Position numbers and translations under genes: made by a program | The notes under the pieces: model-generated | Databases searched by the model: none | Seen by the model: the letters and a program-made list of their open reading frames with translations, nothing else | What the model was told of the DNA's origin: nothing | Assembly: GCA_013336285.1 (NCBI GenBank) | Contig: JAAXTX010000002.1 | Location: 13,730 to 77,729 of the forward strand | Source of the DNA: Candidatus Moraniibacteriota bacterium | Lineage (GTDB): Bacteria > Patescibacteriota > Minisyncoccia > Moranbacterales > UBA1568 | Reading direction: 5' to 3' | Length of the DNA: 64,000 nucleotides | Shown: in pieces, positions 7,831 to 63,155 of the stretch | How positions within the stretch are numbered: the stretch's first letter is position 1 | Layout: every line of letters starts with the position of its first letter

Positions 7831-7895
7831 ATACCCAAGTCTATAAAGTCATTAAGTCCCTAAAGCCGAAAGTCGGAAACCTGAGGTGAAAAATG

Positions 7896-9029: not shown

Positions 9030-9040
9030 AACCTTTCTTT

Positions 9041-17717: not shown

Positions 17718-18209
17718 TTATCGCCGTTCCCTATTGTGAAGCCCGTCCCGGTTCCGGGAAAATATCTCCCATCCCTTGCGGATATCATCCCGTACTCCGG
17801 GAATGAAGTCAAATCCGGAAAGGTCTTCGATCGACTGCCAGCGACATTCGGAGTGTTCGTGTTCATCGCATACGGGCTCCGTCCGCCCTTCGCCATACCC
17901 CTCACAGAAACAGACGAACTTTATGCCCGGGATCTTTTTCTGCGACAGGTCCGGTACGGCGATCTCATACGTCGAGAACGGTATCGCTCCGCCGATACGG
18001 ATGTCGAATTCCTCGCGCATCTGCCGGACGACCGCTTCCTCGAAATTCTCACCGGCGTGTACCTGACCGCCACCGCATTCCCACTGCCCGGGATAGAGTG
18101 CCCGGGTCTCTTGCCGTTTCGCGATCAGCGCGACGATACCGGCCTCCGTCTCCCGGAGACAGATGCCTGCCACATGTACCTCGATGAGTTCACGATGATC
18201 TTCCCTCAT
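17718..18209 (-). CDS. NUDIX hydrolase (MutT-like)
   Basis: NUDIX box GGGQVHAGENFEEAVVRQMREEFDI. Confidence 0.8.
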   Translation of the reverse strand: MREDHRELIEVHVAGICLRETEAGIVALIAKRQETRALYPGQWECGGGQVHAGENFEEAVVRQMREEFDIRIGGAIPFSTYEIAVPDLSQKKIPGIKFVCFCEGYGEGRTEPVCDEHEHSECRWQSIEDLSGFDFIPGVRDDIRKGWEIFSRNRDGLHNRERR

Positions 18210-21849: not shown

Positions 21850-22246
21850 GGGGTTGTTTAGTTTCGACAGCGAGTTCATTCAGAACCTGCAAGCCGATGA
21901 TGGGGAGTCATCGTAAAAAATCCCCACACACGATATCTGCCAACATCGTATCAAAGGTGAAGATGGCGTTCGCTAACGCGTTCTCCCCGTCTTTCGCTTC
22001 AGCTCTCGCCTAAGGGCGTGAGCCATCGGACCCCCGATGTCTGATAGGGGTCATCCGGTGTCATATCATCAGACGGACCGACAGGAGTCTTTCCTCCATT
22101 CACTTCGTCGGCCCGGCATGAAAAGAGGCCCTGGGAAGGTTTCCGTCCGCCTTTCCGCTTTCCGGGGAACCAAAGGCTGACTATGCTTGTAGACGGTTTT
22201 GGAAAAACCCGTTTGGACATGGGTGCGATTCCCATCAACTCCACAC
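21850..22246 (+). ncRNA. ssrA: tmRNA (ssrA)
   Basis: The 5' end GGGGTTGTTTAGTTTCGACAGCG matches the tmRNA 5' consensus GGGGCUGAUUCUGGAUUCGACGGG. The 3' end has the T-arm GGGTGCGATTCCCAT and the acceptor strand CAACTCC+A pairing with GGGGUUG, including the G3:U pair. An internal in-frame tag reading frame ...AFANAFSPSFASALA* ends about 21960-22012. It sits immediately downstream of smpB. Confidence 0.7.
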
Positions 22247-22410
22247 AGAAGCTGTGAAAGCTTCAAAAGCTTCTCTAGCTGCAAAGCTTCTGAAGCCGAT
22301 GAGGCTTATCAGCACAGCAAAGGTAATAGCTCATGAAGCTTCCGAAGCTCATGAAGCTTGAAATTTAAAGCTTACGAAGCTATAGAAGCTTCCGGAGTTC
22401 ATGAAGCTAT
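22247..22410. repeat. Low-complexity tract dense in GAAGCTTC/AAGCTT (HindIII-site) palindromes between tmRNA and infC
   Basis: At least 8 AAGCTT hexamers and repeated CATGAAGCT/CGAAGCT units in about 160 bp. The first unit GAAGCTgtgaaAGCTTC forms a hairpin. Confidence 0.5.
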
Positions 22411-36904: not shown

Positions 36905-37966
36905 TCAACTCCGAGAAGACGGGCGTTCGGGGTATACGTCGCGGGATTTCTTGTCGAACGCGGCAAAGGTCGGCTCACCGAGAAGGACCTGCGCGTTGAC
37001 GAACAAAATCGGTTTCCCACCGATGATCGACTTCGCATACGGAGGACGGACGGCGAGTTCGAGACCGTACCGCTCATGAAACCAGTCCTTGATTCCGGCG
37101 CGGGAATTGTGCGATGCGGGAACGAGAAACGGTTCGTACGACTTTCTTTTCGCGGAGTAGTATGTCGTATGCTTCTCGTGCAGGAAGAGCATGACCTGCG
37201 CGTCCTTCCATCGTCCCCGTTCCAATTTTGAATTTTGTCCGCCATTTGACAGTACGACTTTAGACTTTTGACTTTCGACTTTTGACGTGAGAGCGGTCAG
37301 TTCACTTTTCCCCTTCTCTCGAAAATAACGACACCCGTCTCGGACAGGACATGCACCGCACTTCGGCCGGGCGACACAGATCGCGCTTCCGAAGTCCATA
37401 AGGGACGCGTTCAGCTCCTTCGCAGGCAGCGAAAACGCCGCTTCGAATTCCGGAAACGGGATATCCGCTTTTTTCGACCCGAAGAAAAACCGTCCGACGA
37501 CACGGCGGAGATTCGTATCCCACGCGACCGTATTCCTGCCATAGGCGAAGCTCGCGATCGCGGCAGCGGTATAGGGTCCCACACCGGGGAGCCCCTTAAG
37601 CGCTTCGACGACCTTTGGAAATTTCCCGCCGTGTTCCGAGACGACCACTCGCGCCGTCTTCAACATATTTCGCCCGCGCGCATAGTACCCGAGCCCCTGA
37701 TAATACGGCAGAAATTCCTCCCATGTCGCGATTGCAAGCGATTCGACCGTCGGAAATCGCCCAAGAAAACGCTCATAGTATCCGATCACGCGCGACACCT
37801 GCGTCTGTTGGAGCATGATCTCTGAGACCCAGACCTCGTAGGCGCCGATACGCGCCTTGCGCCACGGCAGGTGCTCCCGCCCAGCATGACGGAAGAAGTC
37901 GTCGAGCTTCCCTTCGAAGAATCTCAGTTTTTCGAGCTGACGTTTTTGCATAGAATCATGAATCAA
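36905..37966 (-). CDS. mutY: A/G-specific adenine DNA glycosylase MutY (HhH-GPD plus 4Fe-4S plus NUDIX-like C-domain)
   Basis: The HhH-GPD region LPGVGPYTAAAIASFAYG, the FeS loop CVARPKCGACPVRDGC, and a C-terminal MutT-like domain. Confidence 0.8.
   Translation of the reverse strand: MIHDSMQKRQLEKLRFFEGKLDDFFRHAGREHLPWRKARIGAYEVWVSEIMLQQTQVSRVIGYYERFLGRFPTVESLAIATWEEFLPYYQGLGYYARGRNMLKTARVVVSEHGGKFPKVVEALKGLPGVGPYTAAAIASFAYGRNTVAWDTNLRRVVGRFFFGSKKADIPFPEFEAAFSLPAKELNASLMDFGSAICVARPKCGACPVRDGCRYFREKGKSELTALTSKVESQKSKVVLSNGGQNSKLERGRWKDAQVMLFLHEKHTTYYSAKRKSYEPFLVPASHNSRAGIKDWFHERYGLELAVRPPYAKSIIGGKPILFVNAQVLLGEPTFAAFDKKSRDVYPERPSSRS
37254..37287. repeat. Copy of the dispersed GACTTTCGACTTT minisatellite, in-frame in the MutY interdomain linker
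   Basis: ACGACTTTAGACTTTTGACTTTCGACTTTTGACG, which encodes TSKVESQKSKVV. Confidence 0.6.
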
Positions 37967-38032
37967 GAAGAAAGAATCGTGCCGTGACCGCTCGCCTCCC
38001 CGTTTAAAACTCTTTTCTTGATTCCTTATTCT

Positions 38033-39097
38033 TTATTCTTCCTCGGAAATGATTCCACTTCCCAGGCACTCATCCCCGCGATAGAACGCGGCGATCTGCC
38101 CGGGAGCGACTCCGGTATCGCCTTCCGCAAGCATCACGCGCCCACGACCCCTATCCTGAATCACAAGATTGCACTCGGCCTCTTTCACCCCATGTCGAAG
38201 TTTCACTGTAAGCGTATCGTCGGACGAAGGCGCTTCCGCGATCCACGAAAGCCCCTCGACCGAAAATTCCGTCCGCGCCGTCTCCGCACTCCTATATGCG
38301 TTCGATATATAGACGATATTCTTGGTGGTATCCTTGCCCGTCACGTACCAGGGTCCCCCGGAAAGCCCTATTCCCTTGCGCTGGCCGATCGTATAGAACC
38401 AGAAGCCCTGGTGCTTCCCGAGCCTTGCTCCGGTCTTCTGGTCGACGATATCCCCTTCGCGGGTCCCAAGCTTCTCCTCGAGGAACTTGTCGAACGGAAC
38501 TTTCCCGAGGAAGCAGATCCCCTGACTATCCTTACGCGTGGCATTCGGAAGCGCGTACGTCACTGCGAGCTTCCGCACTTCCTCCTTGCGGTATCCGCCG
38601 ATCGGGAACATCGCCTTTTCTGCCTGCTCCGGCGTGAGCCTCGAGAGGAAATAGGTCTGGTCCTTCACCGGGTCGGATGAACGCAGCAGACGAGCCTTGC
38701 CGTCTCGAATTTCGGTGTGCGCATAGTGCCCCGTCGCCGCCCGATCGAATTCCGATCCGTACGCCTCGACGAACGCCCCGAACTTGATAAGCGTATTGCA
38801 GAACACGTCCGGATTCGGCGTCCGTCCCGCCGTCGCCTCGGCGATCACGTACGACACGATACGCTCGTGGTATTCCTTCTGGAACGGAACGATCTCGAGT
38901 GGTACCCCAGCCCCCTCGCATACCGAGCGGACATATTTCAGATCTTCCTCCCACGGGCATTCACCCAGGAACGACAACTCGTCCTCAAGCCATATCTTGA
39001 GGTAGAACGCGGACACCTCGTGCCCCGCGTCCTTCAAAAGACGCAGAGCGACCGAACTGTCCACCCCGCCGGAAATAAGCATCGCTATCTTCATGAT
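38033..39097 (-). CDS. mnmA: tRNA-specific 2-thiouridylase MnmA
   Basis: The PP-loop motif SGGVDSS and C-terminal Cys residues. The start is assigned to MKIAMLISGGVDSS. Confidence 0.85.
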   Translation of the reverse strand: MMKIAMLISGGVDSSVALRLLKDAGHEVSAFYLKIWLEDELSFLGECPWEEDLKYVRSVCEGAGVPLEIVPFQKEYHERIVSYVIAEATAGRTPNPDVFCNTLIKFGAFVEAYGSEFDRAATGHYAHTEIRDGKARLLRSSDPVKDQTYFLSRLTPEQAEKAMFPIGGYRKEEVRKLAVTYALPNATRKDSQGICFLGKVPFDKFLEEKLGTREGDIVDQKTGARLGKHQGFWFYTIGQRKGIGLSGGPWYVTGKDTTKNIVYISNAYRSAETARTEFSVEGLSWIAEAPSSDDTLTVKLRHGVKEAECNLVIQDRGRGRVMLAEGDTGVAPGQIAAFYRGDECLGSGIISEEE

Positions 39098-39460
39098 TCC
39101 TCTATAATCGGAAAGAAACGATAGCATGCGCAGAGAAAATTGTCATATACGACACTGTTTCAAAGAAATCGTCTTATCCGGTGTTTCGCCGTCGGTGAAG
39201 TTTTCCAAAAGCAGTCAACTCCCGTCTTCATTTTATAAATCATATGCGATCGTGAACACGATAGAGTGCGTCCCGAGAAATATAATAGGCGTTTAGTCAT
39301 TGTAAGAATTTTCGAAAAAAGTTCGCAGTTCGTTCACGAAATTATTCGCCATGGAATTGTGATGGTGGCGACCACTTCGTAGAAATGATTCTCCGTAAGC
39401 CTTTTATGTCATTGTCTTTTGTTTCTCCCAAGTGCGCGTTGTTTCTCATAGCTAATACAA

Positions 39461-44989: not shown

Positions 44990-45267
44990 TACTAAAACTG
45001 ACGACTGTACCATATATCTCTCATTATATCTCTCATTTTTTTACAAAGATGGGAGTTTTTTATATACCGGTCCTGCACTCGTTTCCAAATACATTTCAGG
45101 AATTGCCGTTGCATGTCGGCGATCGCATGATCGGTGATGATGACCGCGACGAGATTCTCGAACGACACGAGAAACAGGCGATCTCCGGTCACCAGCAGGA
45201 CTGGTCGGCTTCGCCGACTTTACATATTTTCTTCCCTATGCTTAAATAGGACTAAATTAGTCTTACT

Positions 45268-45708
45268 TTGATGAAGATATCAAAAAAGGCATATTATGGC
45301 CTCAGGGCGACGGTCAGTCTCGCGGAGGCTGGCGGGCCTGTTTCGGCACGAGAGCTCGCGGAGCGTGAACGGATCCCCGAGGATTTCCTCGAGAAGATTC
45401 TTCAGAAACTCCGTAAAGCCGGAATCGTCGAATCGACCAAAGGCGTCGAGGGTGGCTATGCGCTGACGCGGAAAACGGTCTCCGCCTGGGACATACTCAA
45501 GGCGCTCGACGGGCCGGTCAGGACATTCTCCTCCCCCGGCGGCAAAGGCACCCTCCCCTGCGACTTCCCCTCCCACTGCCAGACGAACGACGTATTGCGA
45601 AGACTAGAGGATGCGATTGAAAAGACCTTATCAGGAATGACGATTGAAAAATTATCAAATCAGAATAAAGAATCAGGAATTAAGAATATTGTTTCGTCCG
45701 TTTCCTGA
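45268..45708 (+). CDS. Rrf2 family transcriptional regulator (IscR/SufR-like)
   Basis: An N-terminal wHTH (YGLRATVSLAEAGGPVSARELAERERIPEDFLEKILQKLRKAGIV) and Cys residues in LPCDFPSHC. It sits directly upstream of the suf genes. Confidence 0.8.
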   Translation: MMKISKKAYYGLRATVSLAEAGGPVSARELAERERIPEDFLEKILQKLRKAGIVESTKGVEGGYALTRKTVSAWDILKALDGPVRTFSSPGGKGTLPCDFPSHCQTNDVLRRLEDAIEKTLSGMTIEKLSNQNKESGIKNIVSSVS

Positions 45709-45731
45709 CTTTCGACTTTTACTTTCGACTC
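45707..45731. repeat. GACTTTCGACTTT minisatellite copy immediately upstream of sufC
   Basis: GACTTTCGACTTTTACTTTCGACTC, ending 6 nt before the sufC ATG. Confidence 0.6.
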
Positions 45732-45737
45732 AACCCT

Positions 45738-46454
45738 ATGCTTTCCATAAAAAATCTTTCGGCCGCGATCAGTGACAAGGAAATACTTCTCGGAATCACG
45801 CTCGATTTCGAACCGGGAAAGACGTACGTCGTCCTCGGACCGAACGGATCGGGCAAGTCGACATTGGCCGCAACGATCATGGGACGGCCGGATATCGCCG
45901 TTACCGACGCATCCGAACTCGCATGGAACGGAGAGAACCTGAAGGCCTTGTCGGCGGACAAGCGCGCGAGGCTCGGCATTTTCCTTTCCTTCCAGTCCCC
46001 GCTTCCGATTCCCGGCGTCTCGGTCGAGGAACTTCTCCGCTGCGCACTCGACGGAGAGAAGGATCTCGTCGCCCTTCACAAGGAACTCCGCGGGTTCGCG
46101 AAAGAAATCGGCCTCGACGAGGAATTCCTCTCCCGATCCATCCATGACGGTTTTTCCGGGGGCGAACGCAAGAAAGTCGAGGCGATCCAAGCCGCAGCAC
46201 TCGCGCCGTCGCTTGCGATTTTCGATGAGATCGACACCGGCACCGATACGGACGCCGTGAAGCGGATCGCGGAATTCCTTTCGGCTCATCTCCCACAGGA
46301 GGCGACAAAAATATTTATCACGCATTCCCCGAAGCTCATAGAGCTCCTGCGCCCCGATTCGGTCGTCATCCTGAAGGAAGGCCGTGTGGTGGCCGAGGGC
46401 GGGCGTGATCTTGCCGTGAAGACGATCAAGGAGGGATTCGAAGGGATCAAGTAA
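45738..46454 (+). CDS. sufC: FeS assembly ATPase SufC
   Basis: Walker A GPNGSGKST, the ABC signature FSGGERKK and a length of 238 aa. Confidence 0.9.
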   Translation: MLSIKNLSAAISDKEILLGITLDFEPGKTYVVLGPNGSGKSTLAATIMGRPDIAVTDASELAWNGENLKALSADKRARLGIFLSFQSPLPIPGVSVEELLRCALDGEKDLVALHKELRGFAKEIGLDEEFLSRSIHDGFSGGERKKVEAIQAAALAPSLAIFDEIDTGTDTDAVKRIAEFLSAHLPQEATKIFITHSPKLIELLRPDSVVILKEGRVVAEGGRDLAVKTIKEGFEGIK

Positions 46455-46544
46455 CAGATACCATGGAGCAGATAACGGCCGACGTGGACGACAAGACCCA
46501 TTTCAAAATTATGATTTTCGGTCTCGTCCCCTTTCGAAATATTA

Positions 46545-46650
46545 AATTCGAAATTCGAAATTTTTTCGGACTTGATGAACTTTATAGACTTTCGACTTTA
46601 CGGACTTTATAGACTTTCTAGCCTTTATGGACATTACGGACTCTGACGAC
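46545..46650. repeat. Tandem degenerate array of the GACTTTCGACTTT / TTATAGACTTT / TTACGGAC minisatellite spanning the sufC-sufB gap and the sufB start
   Basis: AAATTCGAAATTCGAAA...TTTATAGACTTTCGACTTTACGGACTTTATAGACTTTCTAGCCTTTATGGACATTACGGACTC. This is the largest copy in the window. Confidence 0.65.
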
Positions 46651-48018
46651 TACAAATACGGATTCTCCATGCCCGAGCGAACGATCCATGGGACCGGTCG
46701 CGGACTTTCTGCGTCAGTCGTCCGTCAGATTTCCGAGATCAAGGACGAGCCCGAATGGATGCTCGATTTTCGGCTGAAGTCATACGAACTCTTTACGAAA
46801 GCGTCGAGACCGAAGTGGGGACCCGATCTCTCTGCGCTCGATTACGATTCCATCACCTATTTCAGGAAATCCACCGAGTCCGCCGTGAAGAGCTGGGACG
46901 ACCTCCCGCCGGAAATCCGCGAGACGTACGACCGCATCGGCGTTCCCGAGGCGGAAAAGGATTTTCTTGCGGGAGTATCCGCACAGTACGAAAGCGAGGT
47001 CGTCTACGAAAGCGTCCAGAAGGAACTGACCAAACAGGGCGTCATCTTCTGCGATATGGATACCGCGGTCCGGAAACATCCCGATATCGTGCGAGAATAT
47101 TTCGGTACGCTCGTGCCGCCCGGAGACAATTTCTCCGCCGCGCTCAACTCCGCGACCTGGTCCGGCGGCTCGTTCGTGTACGTCCCGAAGGGCGTCCATG
47201 TCACGCTCCCGCTACAGGCGTATTTCCGCATCAATTCCGAATCGTTCGGACAGTTCGAACGGACGCTCATTGTCGCCGACCAGGGCAGTTTCGTCCACTA
47301 CCTCGAAGGCTGCACCGCCCCGATCTACCGCACCGATTCGCTCCACTCCGCTGTGGTCGAGATCTTCGTAAAAAAAGGCGCTCGTGTCCGCTACACTACC
47401 GTCCAGAACTGGAGCGGTAACATCTATAACCTGGTTACCAAACGTGCGAAGGCCGAGGAAGACGCGATAATGGAATGGGTCGACTGCAATCTCGGCTCCA
47501 AGGTCACCATGAAATACCCGGCGGTCATCCTTGCGGGTCGCGGCGCGCGCGGCGAGATGCTTTCGCTCGCCCTCGCAGGCAAAGGCCAGCATCAAGATAC
47601 CGGCGCGCGCATGATCCACCTCGCCCCCGACACGCACTCGCGTATCGTCTCGAAATCGATATCCAAAGATGGTGGCCGTTCATCCTTTCGCGGCGACATC
47701 CGTGTCGCCAAGAACGCCTCGGGCTGTTCTTCCTCGAGCGTCTGCGACGCACTCATACTCGACAAGGACTCCCGATCGGATACGTACCCATCGCTTCGGA
47801 CCGATGTCTCGGATGCCCGGCTCGCGCACGAGGCAACCGTCGAGAAAATCGGAGAGGAAAAACTCTTCTACCTCGCTTCCCGCGGCATCGGCACGGACGC
47901 TGCGGAAGGTCTTCTCGTCAACGGATTCATCGAACCGGTGGTGAAGGATCTTCCCATGGAATATTCACTTGAGCTCAACCGGCTGATCAATCTCGAGATG
48001 GAAGGAAGCGTGGGATAA
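46627..48018 (+). CDS. sufB: FeS cluster assembly protein SufB
   Basis: 463 aa with the conserved SufB beta-helix and C-terminal region. The annotated ATG lies inside the minisatellite, so the true start may be downstream. Confidence 0.9.
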   Translation: MDITDSDDYKYGFSMPERTIHGTGRGLSASVVRQISEIKDEPEWMLDFRLKSYELFTKASRPKWGPDLSALDYDSITYFRKSTESAVKSWDDLPPEIRETYDRIGVPEAEKDFLAGVSAQYESEVVYESVQKELTKQGVIFCDMDTAVRKHPDIVREYFGTLVPPGDNFSAALNSATWSGGSFVYVPKGVHVTLPLQAYFRINSESFGQFERTLIVADQGSFVHYLEGCTAPIYRTDSLHSAVVEIFVKKGARVRYTTVQNWSGNIYNLVTKRAKAEEDAIMEWVDCNLGSKVTMKYPAVILAGRGARGEMLSLALAGKGQHQDTGARMIHLAPDTHSRIVSKSISKDGGRSSFRGDIRVAKNASGCSSSSVCDALILDKDSRSDTYPSLRTDVSDARLAHEATVEKIGEEKLFYLASRGIGTDAAEGLLVNGFIEPVVKDLPMEYSLELNRLINLEMEGSVG

Positions 48019-48068
48019 AAAAAGAACCATCGATATGCATCGTATCGATGGCCCATCACGTTCCGAAA

Positions 48069-48416
48069 TCACCTCAAAACCATGACAGAGAAAAGAACAT
48101 GCGGTTTCGAATCCGCTCCGATAAGACCGGCTTGCAGCCTCCCCTTCTCACACGGGACGACCTGGACATGCCGTGTCACCTGAAATCCGCCGAAGGAAAA
48201 GATAGCCAGAAGTGCTACCGCGGTAGCAAAACGAAAAGCGGGATACGGCTGAACCGGAACAAAGGATATCCGTTTCCGCACGGCCTTCCAAGCCCATGAA
48301 AAAAATTCGACCATCGGATACCACAACAGGATAGAAAGACCGGCTACGACCGGTATCCCGATGACGGTCAACAACAAGGCAAGACAGTGGCTTAACTGAA
48401 GCATAGATGCCTCCAT
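48069..48416 (-). CDS. Possible antisense-encoded membrane protein (about 115 aa, 3 TM) inside the suf cluster
   Basis: It has a TTGACA-N17-TAGTAT promoter on the minus strand, a 9-bp-stem hairpin plus T-run just after its stop (48015-48052), and a hydrophobic product MEASMLQLSHCLALLLTVIGIPVVAG... Confidence 0.35.
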   Translation of the reverse strand: MEASMLQLSHCLALLLTVIGIPVVAGLSILLWYPMVEFFSWAWKAVRKRISFVPVQPYPAFRFATAVALLAIFSFGGFQVTRHVQVVPCEKGRLQAGLIGADSKPHVLFSVMVLR

Positions 48417-48484
48417 GGTTTGATTATTGGAAATGAACGTCTGATACACTGGAATCGGAAATATACTACTATATTATAAGTATA

Positions 48485-49054
48485 ATGTCAATACTAGAGT
48501 CTATGAGATTAATCGATATATCAAGAGACAACGAAACGACCTACCGACTCAGGGAAAACGAGCGGGCTATTTTCATGATGAACAATCGTGACGGAAAGAT
48601 AACGTTCGAACTCGCCGGGCACGGTGCCACGGCCCATGTCTTCGCGTTCTATGAGGGAACGGATGCCGAACGGTTCGCGCCCCGTATCATACAAAGGCAC
48701 CTCGCGTCGGGAACGGTTTCCTCATCGACCGTGCGGGCGCGACTCGACGGTTCATCCTTACTTCGTTTCCGAGGTCTCGTGGATATCGCGAAGGACGCGA
48801 CCGGATCGGACGCGCGGCAGAACTGCCGGATACTTCTTCTCTCCCCAGACGCCACAGCCCATGCCGGACCGGAACTCGAAATCTCGACGGATGATGTGAC
48901 ATGCTCCCACGCCGCCTCGATCGCGCCGCCCGATCCGGACCAACTGTATTTCCTCGCCACACGCGGACTGGAAACCGACAAGGCGACAGCGCTGCTTGCC
49001 GACGGATTCTTCCGAGACGCCCGCGACGAGATGGAAAGACTCTCCCAATCATAA
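48485..49054 (+). CDS. sufD: Short SufD-like protein (C-terminal SufBD core only)
   Basis: 189 aa matching the SufB/D C-terminal region (...LLLSPDATAHAGPELEISTDDVTCSHAASIAPPDPDQLYFLATRGL...). The N-terminal beta-helix half present in canonical SufD is missing. Confidence 0.6.
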   Translation: MSILESMRLIDISRDNETTYRLRENERAIFMMNNRDGKITFELAGHGATAHVFAFYEGTDAERFAPRIIQRHLASGTVSSSTVRARLDGSSLLRFRGLVDIAKDATGSDARQNCRILLLSPDATAHAGPELEISTDDVTCSHAASIAPPDPDQLYFLATRGLETDKATALLADGFFRDARDEMERLSQS

Positions 49055-49064
49055 TTCCGCTTCT

Positions 49065-50282
49065 ATGATTCCAGAAAACATCCGAAAAGAATTTCCCATT
49101 TTTGATAACCGACCGGAAATGACCTACCTCGATTCCGCGGCGACCGCACTGACACCGGCGCCTGTCATAGAGGCCGTTTCGACATACTATCGCGAGCTCT
49201 CGGCGAATGTCGGGCGAGGACTCTACCCGACCGCGGAGGAAACCACTGCCCGATTCGAATCGGTACGGGAACGAATATCCCGATTTCTCAATACCTCATC
49301 CGATGAGATCGTCTTCACCCGAAACTCGACCGAAGGCCTTAATCTACTCGCAGCCACCCTCGCGGACCGGATCGAGGAAGGCGACAATATCGTCATAACC
49401 GCGCTCGAACACCATTCGAATTTCCTTCCCTGGAAACGGCTCACGAAGCGATGTGGGGCCGAACTCCGCATCGTTCCCTTCGAGAAGGACGGCTCCATAC
49501 ATCCGGACACGGCGAGGTCCTTCGTCGACTCAAGAACAAAAATCTTCGCTTTCTCCGCCATTTCAAACGTATTCGGAACACCGAACGATGTCTCGACTAT
49601 CGTACGAACTGCAAAAGCCCTCAATCCCGATATCCTGACCGTCATTGATGCCGCGCAAGCTATCGGCCACATGCAAGTCGATATTCAAGAGTGGAATTGT
49701 GATTTTCTCGCGTTCTCCGGACATAAATGTTTCGGCCCGACGGGGGTCGGTATCCTTTTCGGAAAACACGACATACTCTCATCGCTTCCACCTTATCAGG
49801 TCGGCGGAGGTATGGTACTTGATTCGACTGCGGACGAACCGACCTATATGGATGTTCCGCACCGATTCGAAGCGGGTACACCCGATATCGCTTCCGTCTT
49901 CGGCCTCGATGCCGCGCTCGACTTCATCGATTCGATCGGTGTCGATGCCATACATGCATACGAATCCGAACTCGCGACACAGGCAGTGTCGAAACTCAAA
50001 AAAGCATTCGGTGATTCGATTCATATTCTCGGTTTTAATGATCGACGCGAAAGCGGCATCGTTTCCTTCACACTCGAAGGCATCCATCCACACGACATCG
50101 CGCAGATTCTCGGTGAACGCGATATCTGTATCCGTGCCGGCGAACACTGTGCTACGCCGCTTCACCACGTTCTCTCCCTCCCCGCCACTGCCCGCGTCAG
50201 TTTCTCGGTATATAATACGGAAGAAGATATCGACCGCCTCATCGAAGGATTGAAGGAAGTGAGAAGTCTTTTTGAGAATTAA
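49065..50282 (+). CDS. sufS: Cysteine desulfurase SufS (class V aminotransferase)
   Basis: The PLP lysine region FSGHKCFGPTGVGILFG and the catalytic Cys loop RAGEHCATP. The start is taken at MIPENIRKEF. Confidence 0.85.
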   Translation: MIPENIRKEFPIFDNRPEMTYLDSAATALTPAPVIEAVSTYYRELSANVGRGLYPTAEETTARFESVRERISRFLNTSSDEIVFTRNSTEGLNLLAATLADRIEEGDNIVITALEHHSNFLPWKRLTKRCGAELRIVPFEKDGSIHPDTARSFVDSRTKIFAFSAISNVFGTPNDVSTIVRTAKALNPDILTVIDAAQAIGHMQVDIQEWNCDFLAFSGHKCFGPTGVGILFGKHDILSSLPPYQVGGGMVLDSTADEPTYMDVPHRFEAGTPDIASVFGLDAALDFIDSIGVDAIHAYESELATQAVSKLKKAFGDSIHILGFNDRRESGIVSFTLEGIHPHDIAQILGERDICIRAGEHCATPLHHVLSLPATARVSFSVYNTEEDIDRLIEGLKEVRSLFEN

Positions 50283-50421
50283 CTATTCTCCCACCCCTCA
50301 CCCGGCATACGCGGGTCAAGAGTCTCGAAGACTTGACAGCTCCCCTCTGGCAGGGGAGCAGGAAACTCACTCAACTCCCCGTTTTTTTGTTTACTGTTAA
50401 TCGCTATCTGTTCACTGTCGT

Positions 50422-50790
50422 ATGTCCTCCCTCTACCAGGCGATCATCCTCGATCATTCGAAACATCCACGCAACTGCGGTGAACTTGAACATGCCAATC
50501 ATCACGGGGAAGCGAAGAATCCGACCTGCGGAGACTCGCTCTCGATGGATATCCTCACCGAAAACGGCATCATCGAGGACATCCGCTTCGACGGGGCCGG
50601 ATGCGCCATATCCCAGGCAAGTGCTTCGCTTCTCACCGAAGCGGTCAAAGAAAAGACTATCGAGGAAGCGCTCGCGCTCGAGCGGGACGACATCCTCGCA
50701 CTCCTCGGCGTGACCCTCACCCCGAACCGCCTCAAATGCGCTCTTCTCGCGCTCGAGACCCTAAAGAAAGCGCTCAGGCCCAAACATTGA
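50422..50790 (+). CDS. sufU: SufU/IscU-like sulfur acceptor or scaffold
   Basis: Three conserved Cys residues (NPTCGD, GAGCAIS, KCALL) and a length of 122 aa. Confidence 0.8.
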   Translation: MSSLYQAIILDHSKHPRNCGELEHANHHGEAKNPTCGDSLSMDILTENGIIEDIRFDGAGCAISQASASLLTEAVKEKTIEEALALERDDILALLGVTLTPNRLKCALLALETLKKALRPKH

Positions 50791-50862
50791 CGGCCGCGAC
50801 ATTTTCGGGTACTCTCCAGATGCGAATAGAATCCTTTTAAAACATAATATTTGGGAGCATGC

Positions 50863-51351
50863 ATGGACAAAACAAAAAGAACAGCCATCCTACTCAAAAT
50901 AGCTGCATCGATTATCGGTATTCACGGCATTGTTTTGCTTATTTCATTTTTCCGAGACGGAGCATACCTGAATAGTCTGAGTTCCAATGCCTTTCTCATT
51001 TTCAGTTATCTCGTTTTTAACGAGAGTCGTCGAGTTATTCCTGAGAGACTGAGACTACTCGGAGACACGTTTGGATTGGCTATCATCTCATTTCTCGGTA
51101 TAAAGGTAATATTGGAACTGCTGGCACTGGGAACTATCATCCCGCACGAGACGGCTGACGCGTACCTGACATGGAATCAGAAGACGGACGGTTCAATGAT
51201 AGATTTCACCTTACAGCTTGTCGGAAATATTATCGTTTTTCTCTCGTTAATACTTTTTGTGTTACTGCCCCTTGCCGGGTGGTGCGCGGGAAAATTAAAC
51301 GATTTCATAAGGGAAACACCTGTCTCCAAAGCGAGGCTTCCAAAAAACTGA
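50863..51351 (+). CDS. Hypothetical 4-TM membrane protein on a low-GC islet
   Basis: Markedly AT-richer than the flanking suf genes. GGGAG sits 6 nt before the ATG, and a hairpin plus T-run terminator lies at about 51385-51420. Confidence 0.5.
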   Translation: MDKTKRTAILLKIAASIIGIHGIVLLISFFRDGAYLNSLSSNAFLIFSYLVFNESRRVIPERLRLLGDTFGLAIISFLGIKVILELLALGTIIPHETADAYLTWNQKTDGSMIDFTLQLVGNIIVFLSLILFVLLPLAGWCAGKLNDFIRETPVSKARLPKN

Positions 51352-51541
51352 ATATCGAACGAACACATCCGTTACAGCGGATTGCGATAGAATACAACGC
51401 GATCCGCTTTTTATTATCAAATTCCAGTAGAAGGAGAGAGCGAAGACCATATGATGCCACCTTGGATACGGATCATAACGCCTGGAAAAATATTCCAAAA
51501 TCAGCTATCATGGGAAGGAAATAACTTCTAAGGAAAATCCT

Positions 51542-51781
51542 ATGGATTTCAAGGATGCCTCCAAGCCGAGCGGACCGGTCACGCTCGCAAGCGGACAGAC
51601 GGTAGCGGTGAATCGTGACGCGTGTATCGGTTGCGGCGGCTGCACGGCCATCGCCCCGAATACTTTCGGGATCGACGAAGAAGGTAAGTCGACTATTCTC
51701 GCCTCCGCGGACGCGGACTCGAAAGAGACGATCACGAGCGCGAAGGACGGTTGCCCCGTTGCCGCGATCAGTGTCGACTAA
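51542..51781 (+). CDS. 4Fe-4S ferredoxin (single cluster)
   Basis: CIGCGGC...CP cysteine pattern, 79 aa. Confidence 0.8.
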   Translation: MDFKDASKPSGPVTLASGQTVAVNRDACIGCGGCTAIAPNTFGIDEEGKSTILASADADSKETITSAKDGCPVAAISVD

Positions 51782-51889
51782 GCTACGGCTTTTTTTAAGA
51801 CGGACATCAACGATACGATGTCCGTTTTCGTTTTCCTTTGCCAAAAGGGGGAAATTTTTATACTATGAAGGTCCTAAGCGATACATGAT

Positions 51890-52207
51890 ATGACTGACGC
51901 CGCAACCACGGCTAAAGAATCGGCGATGGAGAAACTCAGTGCCGTACTCGACCCCGAGCTCGGCGTGTCCATCGTGGACCTCGGCCTCGTCTACGGAGTG
52001 GAAATCTCCCCCGCTGGCGTCGCGACGGTTTCCATGACCCTTACGACCATCGGCTGCCCGCTCTTCTCCGTCATTCAAAAGGATATCGAGGACCGGCTCC
52101 TCGAGCTTCCGGAAATCGAGGACGTGAAGATCGATCTCACCTTCGACCCGCCCTGGTCCCCCGACCGCATGACCAAGGAAACGAAAATCAGGCTCGGATT
52201 CGCATAA
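51890..52207 (+). CDS. sufT: FeS assembly protein SufT / DUF59 (MIP18 family)
   Basis: LDPELGVSIVDLGLVYGVEI...TLTTIGCPL is the DUF59 signature; 105 aa. Confidence 0.8.
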   Translation: MTDAATTAKESAMEKLSAVLDPELGVSIVDLGLVYGVEISPAGVATVSMTLTTIGCPLFSVIQKDIEDRLLELPEIEDVKIDLTFDPPWSPDRMTKETKIRLGFA

Positions 52208-52457
52208 ATATAAAAACCTCCCCGATTTTTTCGAGGAGGTTTATGTCACACCGACACGATGCGACGCAGAAATCGCAGTCACTGGCATAGTCTTCATCCC
52301 ATTCCGCAAATTCGGGACAACAGCAAAGTTCTTTTCTGATTTGTCCTTCTTCGCTCACAATCCTTCTGAGCTCTTCCTCGGCGGCATGGGTTTCTCTCTT
52401 GCTGTCACTTCCAAGTTGCCGGAACAATTCCCGTATTTGCTCTTCCGAGGTCTTCAC
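52188..52457 (-). CDS. Possible Cys-rich small protein (89 aa)
   Basis: CCCPEFAEWDEDYASDCDFCVASCRC with GGAG 6 nt upstream of the ATG. Its 3' end overlaps the sufT terminator hairpin. Confidence 0.3.
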   Translation of the reverse strand: MKTSEEQIRELFRQLGSDSKRETHAAEEELRRIVSEEGQIRKELCCCPEFAEWDEDYASDCDFCVASCRCDINLLEKIGEVFIFMRIRA

Positions 52458-55729: not shown

Positions 55730-56578
55730 TTATCTATACCCCGCCAGGACTTCCTGGAACGCCTCTTCGGAAAATTCCCGTTTATAGGGCGGAACCTCGC
55801 CGATACCAAGGCGATCCTCGTACAGCTCGCGCGAATCGTTGCGATAGATGACACCGAGCGGAAGCTTGTCGGTCTCGAGCGCAAGCTGAAACGCCGCCAC
55901 GCGATCGGTCGGATCGTAGTTCTCCGATACCGGATGCGTGTGTTCCTTGAACCACTGATAGGTATTCGTCTTGTTGAACACGACGCACGGCACGAAAAGA
56001 TCAACCATCGAGAATCCCTTGAAAGAAATCGCCTGTTTGATGATATCCTTTGCCTGGGCGACATCACTCACGTTCGCGCGTGCGACGAACGGCACGTCGA
56101 CCGAAATGGCGACCGCCATGGGATTGAACGGTTCGACGATCACCCCGTCCGGCTGGATCGGGTTCTTCATCCCTTCCTCCGATGTCGGTGATGCCTGCCC
56201 CTTCGTGAGACCGTACACCATGTTGTTGTGCACGAGGACGGTAATATCGGGATTGCGACGCGCGACATGTAACAGATGATTGCCGCCCTCCCCGTAAATA
56301 TCGCCATCACCCGATTCCGCGATGACGGTCAGGCTCCGGTTCGCAAGCTTGATTCCCATCGCCGTTGGAATGGAACGTCCATGCAGTCCGTTGAACATGT
56401 GCGCATCGACATACTGCGGCATCTTGGCCGCCTGGCCGATGCCGGACGCGATGACGACTTCCTTCGGGTCCTTACCGAGGTCACGAAGCGCCATCTTGAG
56501 GATATTGAGAAGCGGAAAATTTCCGCATCCCGGACACCAGGCGATGTCAGTATCCTGAGGCATATCGAAGGGAAGCAT
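55730..56578 (-). CDS. korB: 2-oxoacid:ferredoxin oxidoreductase beta subunit (TPP-binding)
   Basis: DIAWCPGCGNF and the TPP motif GDGD....GGNH. The start is assigned to MLPFDMPQ..., and the longer listed ORF reads through the minisatellite. Confidence 0.85.
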   Translation of the reverse strand: MLPFDMPQDTDIAWCPGCGNFPLLNILKMALRDLGKDPKEVVIASGIGQAAKMPQYVDAHMFNGLHGRSIPTAMGIKLANRSLTVIAESGDGDIYGEGGNHLLHVARRNPDITVLVHNNMVYGLTKGQASPTSEEGMKNPIQPDGVIVEPFNPMAVAISVDVPFVARANVSDVAQAKDIIKQAISFKGFSMVDLFVPCVVFNKTNTYQWFKEHTHPVSENYDPTDRVAAFQLALETDKLPLGVIYRNDSRELYEDRLGIGEVPPYKREFSEEAFQEVLAGYR

Positions 56579-56590
56579 AGGGTTATGAGT

Positions 56591-56622
56591 CAAAAGTGAA
56601 AAGTCGAAAGTCCATCGAGTCC
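56591..56622. repeat. GACTTTCGACTTT minisatellite copy in the korA-korB junction
   Basis: CAAAAGTGAAAAGTCGAAAGTCCATCGAGTCC. Confidence 0.6.
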
Positions 56623-60221: not shown

Positions 60222-60291
60222 ATATTTTTTATTACATGGTTATATTGATGAATTGTTTCATTGTCTCCTGTTCCAGGATAACTGTTAACTG

Positions 60292-61836
60292 CTATCTGTT
60301 CACTGACTTCACTTCCGCTGAAAGCGATCCGTCCGACAACCTGATATTCAGTTCTTCCCCGACGGAGACATCGCCGACCTTCGAGAGCACCTTTCCTCCG
60401 GCCCGAACAATGGCGTAGCCGAGGGAAAGCACTCGGTTAGGGTCATACTGACGAAGCGCTCCTTCTGCCCTAGAAAGCCGTTCCCGAACATCTTTGGCAG
60501 CACTCTTCCAGCCATCGCCGATCCGTCGTGTCGAGTCCTCAAGAAGAGACGAGGACTCTCGCAGCCGGTACTCGATGACCGATAATTTCGAATAAAGCGC
60601 GTTCGTTACCCGCTCGAACCGGTCGGAAACGCCCTCAAGAAAGGCAAGAAAAGTCGAGACACTTTTTTCGAGCCGATCGGAGGATTCGGAAAGCGCGCGT
60701 TCGAAAGAAGAAACAATGGCTCGCTCGCTTTGGACGAGCGTCTGACGTGCCGAATCCCACGGCTCCCGGATAGTACGTGCGACCGCGGTCGGAGTCGAGA
60801 CCATTCGGTCCGCCACGAGTGCGGCCAGGGTCACGTCCTTCTCATGACCTATGCCGGCGATTACCGGCATCTCGCATTCGGAAATTTCACGGACAAGCGA
60901 CTCCGTATTGAACGCCTGCAGACTTTCGATACTTCCGCCGCCGCGAATGATGACCAGGATATCGTATGAATCCGCCTTCGACCGGAAATATCGGATTGCT
61001 TTCAACACGTCGAACACGGCTCTTTTCCCCTCGACACTCGACGGATAAAGGTCGATCCGGATACCCAGCCTTCCGAGATTCGTCAGGAAATCGCCGATTG
61101 CGGCACCCTGTTCCGAAGTGATAAGAGCGATACACTCTGGAAATTCCGGGAGCTTCCGCTTCCGTTCCGGCGCGAAGATACCTTCCGATTCGAGCTTTCG
61201 ATACAGCGCGTCGTAAGCCTTCTTAAGCGCGCCCTCTCCCGCGATCTCAATGACACCGACCTTGAGTGACAGCCTGCCCATCGGCTTCCATATTTCCGGA
61301 ACGCCCTCGACGATCACGTCATCCCCTTCCTTGAGACGCACTCCGGAGACGTCGTATTGCCATCGGAACATGAGGCAGTTGATCATGCTCTGATCTTCCG
61401 GATCCTTAAGGGAAAAGTATACGACCCGTTCGCGCTCATCCACTGAAGATACTTCCCCGCGGATTCGGGCGGCCATACCGGAAAGCTCCGTATTGAGTCC
61501 GTCGAGGAATCGGCTCACGGACAATATGTCGTCTTCAGTCGGTGAAACCGTTTCCGACATATTCGAAAAATCAGATCGCATCCCGACGGGCTCCGACACA
61601 GGCATCATTCCGGTTCCAGATCCGGCACGCGCGACGATTTCCAGAATCGCCTTCCCATACTGGCGACACTTCGCATCCTTGATTCCCTTCACCTCCATGA
61701 GCTCACCCGATGTCGACGGCTTCCTTGCGGCTATGCCGTCGAGCGCGGCATTCGTAAGCACGCGAAACGGCTCAACGCCTTCTTTCGAAGCCTGTTTCGC
61801 CCGCCACATCCGTAACAAAGAGGAAAGATCCGCCAT
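60292..61836 (-). CDS. xseA: Exodeoxyribonuclease VII large subunit with an N-terminal HRDC-like extension
   Basis: The OB-fold and catalytic core (...IALITSEQGAAIGDF...IIRGGGSIESL...AGIGHEKD...) are preceded by about 70 aa resembling an HRDC domain (EPFRVLTNAALDGIAARKPSTSGELMEVKGIKDAKCRQYGKAILEIV). Confidence 0.8.
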   Translation of the reverse strand: MADLSSLLRMWRAKQASKEGVEPFRVLTNAALDGIAARKPSTSGELMEVKGIKDAKCRQYGKAILEIVARAGSGTGMMPVSEPVGMRSDFSNMSETVSPTEDDILSVSRFLDGLNTELSGMAARIRGEVSSVDERERVVYFSLKDPEDQSMINCLMFRWQYDVSGVRLKEGDDVIVEGVPEIWKPMGRLSLKVGVIEIAGEGALKKAYDALYRKLESEGIFAPERKRKLPEFPECIALITSEQGAAIGDFLTNLGRLGIRIDLYPSSVEGKRAVFDVLKAIRYFRSKADSYDILVIIRGGGSIESLQAFNTESLVREISECEMPVIAGIGHEKDVTLAALVADRMVSTPTAVARTIREPWDSARQTLVQSERAIVSSFERALSESSDRLEKSVSTFLAFLEGVSDRFERVTNALYSKLSVIEYRLRESSSLLEDSTRRIGDGWKSAAKDVRERLSRAEGALRQYDPNRVLSLGYAIVRAGGKVLSKVGDVSVGEELNIRLSDGSLSAEVKSVNR

Positions 61837-61867: not shown

Positions 61868-61930
61868 ATTACGGACACGCTACATTGCCGAACGACTTAA
61901 TATACTTTCGACTTTCGGACTTGGGGACTC
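61868..61930. repeat. GACTTTCGACTTT / TTACGGAC minisatellite copy upstream of xseA
   Basis: ATTACGGACACGC...ATACTTTCGACTTTCGGACTTGGGGACTC. Confidence 0.6.
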
Positions 61931-63155
61931 AAAATAACAACGTGTCCGGTTTGAAAATGAGCAGCAATCCGAGCATAACCATAAGTGCTCCACCGAACAG
62001 ATTGCACCATTTCACATAGCCTTCGGTCATTTGCAACCTCCCCGCACCCCACAACGCGAGTGCGAACACGACGAGATCGTCGACCATGTAAAAGAGCATG
62101 TAGATGAGCATGTATCCCTGGGTCCGGAAGAACCCGAGACGGTTCATCTCGATAATCTTCGTGAATGTCTGCGGGATGCCTATCGAACAGGCGAATTCGA
62201 TAACGTTAACGGAAAGGGCGAGGGTCACCACGCCGGTCGCCGTGATCCAGGTGAATGGCTGCGCGACGAGTTTCTTGATCTGTCCCGATATGCCGGCCCG
62301 CTTCTTCACGTCCGTCACGAGACACGTCCCGTCGCCGCGATACCATTCATAGATAAAAAAGATTCCTCCACCAATCGCGATCAACCCGACGATCGGAGTC
62401 ACGATACGGTCAAGTCCGATAAAATCCCACGCCTTGAACCAGACGTTCAGGATGAGATAGTACATGATCGTCTCTGCCAGAAGGAACAGTCCTGCCACGA
62501 GAATAATCTTCTTCCGATCGCCGAACTGGATGAGCACCAGAAGGAATGTGACGAGAACCCACATCGCGCAAGGATTGAACCCGTCCACGAAGCCGAGAAT
62601 GGCGGACAATGCCGGCAGCGAATATCTCGATACGTCAACCGTACCCGCCACCGGCACCGAAACGTAGGCGGGATCGTTTCCGAAAGTCCTACACACGTTT
62701 CCATCCTCGCAGGTTCCCCCGGACGACTTTTCCACGTTTCCGCCTTTACCGGAGGAAAGGATCGAATCGAACCCAGTCGCATCAGAAGTCGGATTGTCGA
62801 GGAGCTCCTCGATCCGTCTTCCCGTCGTATCGGAAGATTCGAAACCCTGAATGACGATCCCCCCGACCGCCGTGATCGGAGTCGATTTCGAAAGTTCCTC
62901 GAACACCGTCACGCGGTCGAAAAGCGCCTTTCCTTCCGTTGTTCCCAAATCGTACGTCACGACATCCACATCGTTTCTCCGCGCCGAAAGGTCACGAAGA
63001 AACGCTTCTTCTTCCTGACAATGGGCGCAATCGGTCCGCCCGATGATTTCCACGGTCTTCTTCTCCTTTGCAAAGACCGATACCGGAGCAAAAAAAGACA
63101 GTATCGATAGAAAAAGGAGAAAAATGATCGACATTTTTTTCATAAGGTTTACCAA
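61929..63155 (-). CDS. Membrane protein with N-terminal thioredoxin-like CxxC domain and polytopic C-terminal domain (DsbD/CcdA-like?)
   Basis: A signal/TM segment, then CAHCQ, then about 6 transmembrane helices with a Cys pair (NPCAMW...CSIG). Confidence 0.45.
   Translation of the reverse strand: MVNLMKKMSIIFLLFLSILSFFAPVSVFAKEKKTVEIIGRTDCAHCQEEEAFLRDLSARRNDVDVVTYDLGTTEGKALFDRVTVFEELSKSTPITAVGGIVIQGFESSDTTGRRIEELLDNPTSDATGFDSILSSGKGGNVEKSSGGTCEDGNVCRTFGNDPAYVSVPVAGTVDVSRYSLPALSAILGFVDGFNPCAMWVLVTFLLVLIQFGDRKKIILVAGLFLLAETIMYYLILNVWFKAWDFIGLDRIVTPIVGLIAIGGGIFFIYEWYRGDGTCLVTDVKKRAGISGQIKKLVAQPFTWITATGVVTLALSVNVIEFACSIGIPQTFTKIIEMNRLGFFRTQGYMLIYMLFYMVDDLVVFALALWGAGRLQMTEGYVKWCNLFGGALMVMLGLLLIFKPDTLLF

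Follow-up and report, generated by a model that had tools for sequence, protein, structure and literature searches.

A stretch of 64,000 nt (the window) from a Moranbacteria-like Patescibacterium, a bacterium of the candidate phyla radiation, carries short tandem repeats of the type GACTTTN at the suf and kor genes and at several other loci, which raises the question of what these repeats are and what keeps them where they lie. The first-pass annotation of the window had described them as a genome-specific minisatellite of 12–25-bp units, mostly beside Fe-S genes, and had proposed for them a protein-binding array of an Fe-S or redox regulon, a small mobile mini-repeat, or a slippage-prone satellite. 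Our analysis places the GACTTTN arrays in a known, still unexplained class of tandem heptanucleotide repeats, to which the short tandemly repeated repetitive (STRR) sequences, the long simple-sequence repeats (LSSRs), and the TAACTGA repeats belong. As to their cause, slippage-born heptanucleotide arrays filtered by constraints at the level of translation appear to be the best explanation, and we give it about an even chance.

A search of the window for GACTTTCGACTTT with up to 2 mismatches returned 17 matches against 2.66 ± 1.62 expected from 100 dinucleotide-preserving shuffles, none of which reached 17; the density was thus far above the shuffled expectation, and the excess over chance was confirmed. 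The repeat unit is the heptamer GACTTTN: Tandem Repeats Finder (TRF) reported a period of 7 at 8116–8146 (4.4 copies, 95% matches), 37256–37286, 45707–45730, and 56588–56612, and the heptamer tracts that it called consist of 3–5 imperfect units with 77–95% matches. The 13-mer "core" of the first-pass annotation is two heptamer units, and its 12–25-bp units have to be replaced by a unit of 7 nt; periods of 9, 18, and 25 nt were confined to the array upstream of sufB, built mostly of 9-nt units (TTTAYRGAC), and units in the ATPase leader array are spaced by 8–9 nt. These two GACTTT-type arrays (46579–46653 and 7837–7876, respectively) combine 7-nt with 8–9-nt units. The heptamer GACTTTC is not self-complementary and is free of stop codons in all frames, and each GACTTTN unit contains one G. 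GACTTTN, the commonest of several heptamer families within the window, was found at seven loci.

7837–7876, minus strand: GACTTT-type array with 8–9-nt spacing; the minus strand reads CCGACTTTCGGCTTTAGGGACTTAATGACTTTATAGACTT, U-rich on the mRNA
8113–8150, plus strand: GACTTTC/GATTTTC, 4.4 copies, inside tgt (7896–9029, minus strand); TRF period 7
37253–37289, plus strand: GACTTTN, 4.4 copies, inside mutY (36905–37951, minus strand); TRF period 7
45707–45731, plus strand: GACTTTC GACTTTT ACTTTC GACTC at the Rrf2–sufC junction; U-rich on the mRNA
46579–46653, plus strand: the longest GACTTT-type array, with 7-nt GACTTTC and 9-nt TTTAYRGAC units
56587–56614, minus strand: GACTTTC GACTTTT CACTTTT GACTC in the 58-nt korA–korB spacer
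61894–61925, plus strand: ACTTTCGACTTTCGGACTTGGGGACTC array; the minus-strand mRNA is purine-rich, GAGUCCCCAAGUCCGAAAGUCGAAAGU

The six loci known from the first-pass annotation were all present at the coordinates given there, and the loci are dispersed on both strands, as it had described; the seventh, 7837–7876 on the minus strand, had been missed. The tract drawn at 46545–46650 does contain repeats, including the longest GACTTT-type array, but it merges two distinct arrays, TTCGAAA at 46536–46565 and the GACTTT-type array at 46579–46653. According to Pfam, the genes beside the seven loci encode a P-type ATPase, TGT, a MutY-like glycosylase, Rrf2, SufC, SufB, a KorB-like beta subunit, and XseA. 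A predominance of Fe-S genes was not upheld: the loci adjoin the P-type ATPase gene, tgt, mutY, sufC, sufB, korB, and xseA, and downstream genes found elsewhere are diverse.

The ATPase leader array lies within the 65-nt tgt–ATPase spacer and ends 6 nt 5′ of the ATPase ATG (7830). The array at the Rrf2–sufC junction starts inside the Rrf2 stop codon TGA (45706–45708) and likewise ends 6 nt 5′ of the sufC ATG (45738), and the one between korA and korB ends 8 nt 5′ of the likely korB start (ATG 56578). The longest array passes through the sufB ATG (46627) and provides the opening codons MDITDSDD. The seventh array lies 4 nt past the stop of gene 61929–63143, upstream of xseA.

The heptamer period is not a property of GACTTTN alone. 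In a census of self-match windows at fixed offset, 9 period-7 arrays were found in the window versus 0.23 expected from an order-3 Markov model (maximum of 1 in 30 simulations); periods of 5, 8, 10, and 11 were at background, and multiples of three showed only a mild coding-related excess. Altogether, 16 arrays were counted per 64 kb, and ~69% of array bases are intergenic versus ~15% of the window. Besides GACTTTN, the families in the window are AAGTGAG, TGATTCA/TGATTCT with its complement AGAATMA, TTCGAAA, and TAACTGT-like units, located as follows.

378–411, minus strand: AAGTGAG, three copies; the first unit gives the TGA stop (402–400) of the M16 peptidase gene; purine-rich on the mRNA
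1686–1716, minus strand: TGATTCA/AATTCCT-type, U-rich, directly 5′ of the M16 peptidase ATG (1685)
37952–37977, minus strand: TTCTTGA TTCATGA TTCT, U-rich, directly 5′ of the mutY ATG (37951)
38014–38043, minus strand: AGAATAA AGAATAA GGAATCA, purine-rich, spanning the stop of gene 38033–39127
45662–45687, plus strand: AGAATAA AGAATCA GGAATTA, encoding the Rrf2 C-terminal tail NQNKESGIKN; a homologous array is present in relative L001
46536–46565, no strand assigned: TTCGAAA, a self-complementary heptamer, in the sufC–sufB spacer; found by TRF and by the period-7 census
50375–50404, plus strand: TTACTGT TAATCGC TATCTGT TCACTGT, past the stop of the minus-strand gene 50404–50760; purine-rich on the sense strand of the gene
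60277–60300, minus strand: ACAGATA GCAGTTA ACAGTTA, spanning the xseA stop (60292)

The arrays at 38014–38043 and 37952–37977 are inverted partners and are paired in the minimum-free-energy fold. TTCGAAA arrays were also found in loci of Roizmanbacteria (L010) and Gottesmanbacteria (L030) and in the TGT loop of L209.

The position of an array relative to start and stop codons goes together with its strand. All start-proximal arrays of the window lie at junctions of same-strand genes, are pyrimidine-rich on the mRNA (GACUUUY or UGAUUCU), and end 0–10 nt before the ATG; the spacers of these junctions measure 65 nt (tgt–ATPase), 29 nt (Rrf2–sufC), 172 nt (sufC–sufB), 58 nt (korA–korB), 81 nt (upstream gene–mutY), and 69 nt (upstream gene–M16 peptidase). 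Arrays that span a stop codon or come after one are purine-rich (378–411, 38014–38043, 45662–45687, 50375–50404, 60277–60300, and 61894–61925), and so, on the mRNA, are both gene-internal GACTTT arrays (tgt and mutY). Counted over the window and seven syntenic relatives, from automated calls plus irregular arrays entered by hand, start-proximal arrays were U-rich in 13 cases and purine-rich in 1 (binomial p = 0.002) and stop-proximal arrays were purine-rich in 11 and U-rich in 2 (binomial p = 0.02), both p-values being optimistic since orthologous arrays are not independent. Orientation follows whichever strand carries the gene (plus for sufC and sufB, minus for the others), which ties it to expression and not to the direction of replication.

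Shine–Dalgarno (SD) motifs were found upstream of 5 of the 37 window genes (14%), which is about the chance level, with 34% for loci without heptamer arrays, a crude measure. We failed to find GGAG, GAGG, or AGGA between the start-proximal arrays and the ATG. The four GACUUU leaders are predicted to be weakly structured, with −3 to −13 kcal/mol per 80 nt and z-scores of +0.6, +1.0, −0.6, and +1.0. The Rfam search gave no match with E ≤ 1 at 45200–46750 and, at the gathering score, only tmRNA in the whole window; a structured RNA was rejected on account of these non-significant fold z-scores and the absence of an Rfam match.

The arrays also interfere with gene calling, as the first-pass annotation had pointed out: the korB frame is open through its array up to GTG 56677, where it overlaps korA, while ATG 56578 is the likely start. 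Likewise, ATG 1685, right after the TGATTCA-type array, is the most likely start of the M16 peptidase gene. By holding frames open, arrays produce wrong starts and false overlaps, with korB, the M16 peptidase gene, and an antisense shadow ORF (open reading frame) over tgt as cases in point. The latter, on the plus strand at 7893–9287, codes for 464 residues, exceeding the 377 residues of tgt itself, and has no Pfam match; such a shadow ORF could be mis-annotated. The start contexts of sufC (GACTCAACCCTATGCTTTCC, window 45731–45745) and korB (GACTCATAACCCTATGCTTCCC, 56571–56586) are near-identical, and ...CAATCCCTATG was found 5′ of the ATPase gene in relatives; the C-rich motif ACCCTATG may serve as an initiation context specific to this lineage.

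The SufB and TGT homologues belong to Patescibacteria, mostly labelled Moranbacteria or Moraniibacteriota. No exact copy of the window's SufB, SufC, or TGT turned up in the indexed assemblies, and the comparison was made with the syntenic relatives L001, L081–L086, and L207–L209. The nearest of them, L001 (DATMYW01), is syntenic with window positions 45218–52208; its SufB has 93% identity to the window protein, and its genes have ~80% nucleotide identity. L001 and L084 (GCA_035560715.1, DATMYW01) carry the label "Candidatus Fimivivens sp." (Oscillospiraceae, Bacillota), which is probably a taxonomy-label error, judging from TGT, SufB, and gene order, all of which match Moranbacteria-like Patescibacteria.

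At orthologous sites of these genomes, the flanks are fixed, while unit type and copy number drift through intermediate forms. The site upstream of sufC contains GACTTTC in the window and TGATTCA TGATTCA TAATTCT in L001, and the site upstream of the sufB ATG is represented in L001 only by GACTTTCGACTTGATAGAACTT. Conversely, the TxxCTGT units located in the window 3′ of gene 50404–50760 are replaced by a four-unit GACTTT array in L001. Degenerate TTTTCGA units occupy the ATPase-leader site in relatives. At the stop of the M16 peptidase gene, AAGTGAG units are present in the window and L084 and ACAGATA units in L085 and L208, between conserved flanks, and both array types then run into one conserved GC-rich hairpin. 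Upstream of the start of the same gene, the TGATTCN array varies from about 0 to 6 units across seven orthologues. Fixed flanks combined with drifting units and copy numbers are what would be expected from microsatellite-like evolution in place, and not from the insertion of a mobile element.

The GC-rich hairpin GCTCCCCTTGGGGAGGGGAGC lies 3′ of the M16 peptidase gene at ~318–350 (minus strand) of the window and in L084, L085, and L208, and a similar sequence, GCTCCCCTCTGGCAGGGGAGC, recurs elsewhere in the window (50335–50360). It may be a terminator or an element resembling the repetitive extragenic palindromic (REP) sequences.

Turnover of the same kind was found in translated copies. The GAAAGUC/GAAAAUC units of the tgt mRNA encode PKIENRKSKVED within a 16-residue loop insertion relative to Z. 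mobilis TGT, and the mutY array encodes TSKVESQKSKVV in the linker past the catalytic domain. The TGT loop, which follows GRHGRLF.W, is hypervariable among 60 homologues: GAAAGTC-type peptides (SKVESEKSQV, SKGESKKSKVE), a CTCACAA-type peptide (LTTHSSQLTT), and an AATTTCG-type peptide (ISNFEFRIS) were found, other homologues being devoid of the insert. The loop of L081 has the unit AGTCACA, intermediate between AGTCGAA and ACTCACA. Heptamer arrays thus add lineage-specific low-complexity insertions to conserved enzymes (TGT and MutY). Rickettsia palindromic elements, which are mobile, palindromic, and 100–150 bp long, also occur in frame in housekeeping proteins. Like these elements and the tandem repeats of Borg elements (PMC9879509), the translated arrays form in-frame hydrophilic or disordered segments at permissive sites of housekeeping proteins; the within-gene Borg units have lengths divisible by three, in contrast to the unit of 7 nt found here, with which the frame is kept only by total length. 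A perfect 22-nt palindrome, GAGACGGGGCATGCCCCGTCTC, was also found in frame in the TGT loop (P0001, P0005, P0008, and P0024; L084, L085, and L209), where it is translated as ETGHAPSL; it appears to be a second kind of small repeat that colonises coding loops in Moranbacteria.

Beyond the lineage, all counts of metagenome contigs given here rest on contigs matched by GACTTTNGACTTTNGACTTT (three GACTTTN units), among the matches listed. At least 120 contigs were matched, with a GC content of 33–73%, so that the arrays, which the nearest relatives also bear, are not specific to one genome. Other kinds of heptamer array, up to 12 per contig, are present in many of these contigs, and 376 arrays comprise 180 distinct units. 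GACTTTN arrays located before long ORFs were U-rich and purine-rich at a ratio of 18:6, and those spanned by ORFs were purine-rich at 47:21; other heptamers were purine-rich at stops at 64:27. Ten proteins encoded downstream of such arrays were identified with Pfam (cobalamin adenosyltransferase, HisA-family, TrkA, polyprenyl synthetase, MazG, MerR, UbiE, M20 peptidase, DUF1003, and lyase) and have no functional relation to one another or to Fe-S metabolism. The different units in relatives, the occurrence in at least 120 unrelated contigs, and the unrelated genes argue that the repeat is neither genome-specific nor an Fe-S/Rrf2 operator. Among 80 SufB loci, the exact 13-mer was absent; period-7 arrays were frequent in those of Patescibacteria and Anaerolineae and rare in those of Paenibacillus, Actinomycetota, and others. 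Very dense or long arrays were observed in contigs L195 (2931–3279), L114, L137, and L200. In L195, 10 arrays are packed into 3.3 kb, and blocks of GACTTTG, GTCATTS, and GACGTTC/GATGTTC type alternate; up to 14 GACTTTN units are reached in other contigs. The class can thus expand far beyond its extent in the window.

The cyanobacterial STRR heptamers are CCCCAGT, TTGGTCA, and CAACAGT. With STRR and LSSR sequences, the window arrays share short tandem heptanucleotide organization, a mostly intergenic location, and over-representation relative to other periods, and slippage has been proposed there. They differ in units and lineage, and cyanobacterial arrays can be much longer; strand polarity at starts and stops was not found in the published descriptions consulted. 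According to Mrazek et al. 2007, as reported in PMC4679880 and PMC4692102, heptanucleotide repeats rank first in abundance among the long simple-sequence repeats of most prokaryotic genomes, with slippage suggested as their origin. The closest parallel in position comes from the TAACTGA repeats, present in marine Beggiatoaceae and also in some Cyanobacteria and Bacteroidetes: 169 sets were found in a Beggiatoaceae genome, mostly a few nt 5′ of starts in spacers without SD, with reverse copies inside ORFs at peripheral positions (MacGregor 2015, PMC4679880). Both kinds of repeat have a 7-nt unit in sets of 2–6 copies, a start-proximal location in one orientation without SD, reverse copies tolerated in ORFs, diverse downstream genes, and a patchy phylogenetic distribution. 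The differences concern the unit, since it is GACTTTN here and only the degenerate TAACTGT-like arrays at 60277–60300 and 50375–50404 resemble TAACTGA; the host, a Patescibacterium; the coexistence of several families, whereas related heptamers are rare in BOGUAY; and the stop codon contained in forward TAACTGA, while GACTTTC has none in any frame. GGGAATC arrays of Xanthomonas and GGGGAYT arrays of Nostoc occupy the same gene junctions in related species with varying length and sequence (Rehm et al. 2015, PMC4692102), and a preprint reports that such repeats affect the expression of recF and recO in Nostoc (bioRxiv 10.1101/2022.06.06.494920). Inverted pairs occur there as in our material, but the Xanthomonas and Nostoc repeats are rich in G and capable of quadruplex formation, whereas GACTTTN is predicted to be unstructured. 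In the literature searched, we found no published description of heptamer arrays from the candidate phyla radiation.

Under the explanation preferred here, slipped-strand replication or unequal exchange would create arrays and reshape them in place, in sequence that tolerates variation: same-strand spacers, the surroundings of stop codons, and permissive loops or linkers of proteins. Unit variants would spread or decay inside each array, so that relatives come to differ in units and copy numbers at one site. Selection at the level of expression would then decide which strand is tolerated at which location. Before starts, only U-rich, G-poor GACUUUY would persist, giving a weakly structured initiation region without SD in a host that hardly uses SD; in translated arrays and in those next to a stop, only purine-rich GAAAGUC would persist, because it encodes a hydrophilic peptide rich in K, E, S, and R. 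The positions, period, and excess of the arrays, their strand polarity, turnover at orthologous sites, and wide distribution, the weak structure predicted for the leaders, and the low SD usage are results of this analysis; slippage as the generator and compatibility with translation or with the protein as the filter are what we infer. The literature offers precedents for each element of this explanation (PMC4679880, PMC4692102, and bioRxiv 10.1101/2022.06.06.494920). As an origin, the slippage-prone satellite of the first-pass annotation is the best supported of its three candidates, though the copies are short and imperfect and probably not very unstable now.

Several points weigh against this explanation. 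The arrays in the window are short and imperfect, and no array length changes were seen between near-identical strains (L081 is identical to L083, and no indels separate L085 from L086); since such pairs are few, this absence is uninformative rather than negative. Gene starts were set by inspection, and the p-values for polarity are, as said, optimistic. In array-free leaders of the window, the mean purine fraction was 0.52; these leaders are not pyrimidine-rich, and a U-rich leader is therefore no general requirement. Among the contigs listed, heptamers other than GACTTTN were not preferentially U-rich before starts (15 U-rich vs 23); the rule "U-rich before starts" thus fails for heptamer families at large and holds only for GACTTT arrays and the lineage of the window. 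Finally, the recurrence of one unit, GACTTTN, at seven loci of a 64-kb stretch and in at least 120 contigs of 33–73% GC is more than slippage by itself accounts for: some sequence preference, selective or mechanistic, remains behind this recurrence, and its extension across very different genomes leaves room for an RNA-binding reader with an oligonucleotide/oligosaccharide-binding (OB) fold.

Such a reader would make the array a phased pad for a putative OB-fold RNA binder (S1 or a cold-shock protein, ~7 nt per domain), with the arrays acting as SD-independent enhancers of translation or as marks of a post-transcriptional regulon and the period reflecting a protein footprint instead of slippage. 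The arrays end 0–10 nt from starts, in one orientation and at same-strand junctions, SD usage is at the chance level, the leaders are unstructured, and one unit recurs across very different GC contents, suggesting selection on sequence. The preferred heptamer of B. subtilis CspB, GTCTTTG/T, is similar to GACTTTY. S1, Csp, or CsrA was proposed as a reader of TAACTGA by MacGregor 2015 (PMC4679880), who cites one CspB per heptamer, and the Nostoc heptamer repeats near start codons affect expression (bioRxiv 10.1101/2022.06.06.494920). Unrelated families, however, share equivalent positions in one genome and swap between relatives of ~80% nucleotide identity, and this swapping at orthologous sites argues against a sequence-specific reader, as does the count of 180 distinct units among 376 arrays (matches listed); the purine-rich copies past stops and inside genes would require a separate account. 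No cold-shock-domain gene was found in the 64-kb window, a fraction of the genome, which also counts against the proposal, and we regard it as unlikely, though worth keeping in view. In a broader form, drawn by analogy with Cyanobacteria, Bacteroidetes, and Beggiatoaceae, oriented arrays might be a widespread functional substitute for SD in SD-less lineages such as Patescibacteria, serving as phased structure-free pads with 7 nt as the OB-fold footprint and recruiting or handing over ribosomes in operons, the purine-rich copies being a by-product of expansion; this, too, seems doubtful on present evidence. An alternative in which arrays are the arms of RNA stem-loops, purine-rich post-stop copies pairing with U-rich pre-start copies within a spacer or at long range and serving coupling, processing, or stability, draws on inverted same-family pairs that flank spacers (window 38043–37953; L001 2012–2088 and 4425–4560; L209 18291–18378) and whose arms pair in minimum-free-energy folds, and on the complementarity between the tgt GAAAGUC array and the GACUUUC array of the ATPase leader in the window and L081. 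Yet the inverted AGAAUMA...UGAUUCU hairpins are long and imperfect, with z-scores of only −0.2 to −1.0, most GACTTT arrays have no partner, and opposite-strand copies of one family are complementary automatically. L207 and L208, with the CTCACAA tgt loop, have tgt–ATPase spacers of 7 and 21 nt without a complementary array; there is thus no covariation between the tgt loop and the ATPase leader, and their long-range pairing was rejected on this ground. The stem-loop account as a whole is improbable.

A small non-autonomous mobile element, similar to a miniature inverted-repeat transposable element or a Rickettsia palindromic element and inserting at junctions and in frame in genes, would account for seven dispersed loci in both orientations, for the in-frame insertions in TGT and MutY, and for GACTTTN in many genomes. 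Terminal inverted repeats, target-site duplications, and defined ends were nevertheless not found around the arrays, an association with transposases was not seen, each locus has a copy number and unit spacing of its own, and orthologous flanks are fixed and continuous while units drift by point changes; the mobile mini-repeat of the first-pass annotation is quite improbable on these grounds. The arrays could also be phase-variable contingency loci, with downstream genes switched as 7-nt units are gained or lost, since tandem repeats lie beside starts and unit number varies among orthologous sites; with tracts of 3–5 imperfect units that are much shorter and less pure than known switches, housekeeping genes downstream (suf, kor, tgt, and mutY), and no length polymorphism between the few near-identical strain pairs, we consider this very improbable. 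The remaining proposal is a putative DNA operator array for an Rrf2-family regulator or another transcription factor of an Fe-S/redox regulon. In its favour, sufC, sufB, and korB account for three of the seven loci, MutY is likewise an Fe-S protein, and the Rrf2 gene lies directly 5′ of sufC. Heptad repeats can be operators, TTTTGAT in the V. cholerae ctx promoter being an example. Known Rrf2/IscR sites are imperfect palindromes of roughly 25–30 bp and not direct heptamers. The arrays lie between same-strand genes or inside coding sequence and not in promoter regions, their orientation is tied to the transcribed strand, the closest relative, L001, has TGATTCA units and no GACTTTN array upstream of sufC, and the downstream genes elsewhere are unrelated; we therefore attach hardly any credence to the Fe-S/redox binding array. 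A promoter role with TTGACT as a −35 element was rejected as well: no promoter-like sites overlapping the window arrays were found, array ends lie too near the ATG, and all arrays are inside same-strand pairs. With REP sequences and bacterial interspersed mosaic elements, clustered regularly interspaced short palindromic repeats (CRISPR), and Rrf2/IscR operators, the arrays share only short intergenic repetition, the palindrome, the unique spacers, the cas context, and the operator palindrome being absent. The earlier statement that the repeat belongs to neither of the first two groups nor to CRISPR stands, because the unit is not palindromic and lacks inverted arms, and units of 7–9 nt are contiguous instead of forming 23–47-nt repeats with unique spacers.

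The GACTTTN arrays extend the unexplained heptanucleotide-array class to bacteria of the candidate phyla radiation, and they put two constraints on any explanation, namely strand polarity relative to start and stop codons and the replacement of one family by another at fixed orthologous sites. If the arrays do act in SD-independent initiation, they would help to explain how translation starts in many SD-less bacteria. If they are neutral products of slippage, they would be a useful marker of the mutational regime and of strain divergence.

Two further features of the window were noted. A divergent T-box leader at 17504–17730 (minus strand), located 5′ of a small ORF and of the IleRS gene (13421–16528), reached 30.5 bits over the full model (E = 6e-5), the gathering score being 93, and is thus below the curated threshold of Rfam; a similar sequence with GGTGGTACCACGG was found 5′ of IleRS in L081 and L085. 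The tmRNA gene is located at 21850–22246 on the plus strand (122 bits) and encodes the tag peptide ANIVSKVKMAFANAFSPSFASALA. Directly 3′ of it, up to ATG 22417, 9- and 18-nt tandem repeats, AAAGCTTCT and AGCTCATGAAGCTTCCGA (4.7 copies), were found at 22257–22408.

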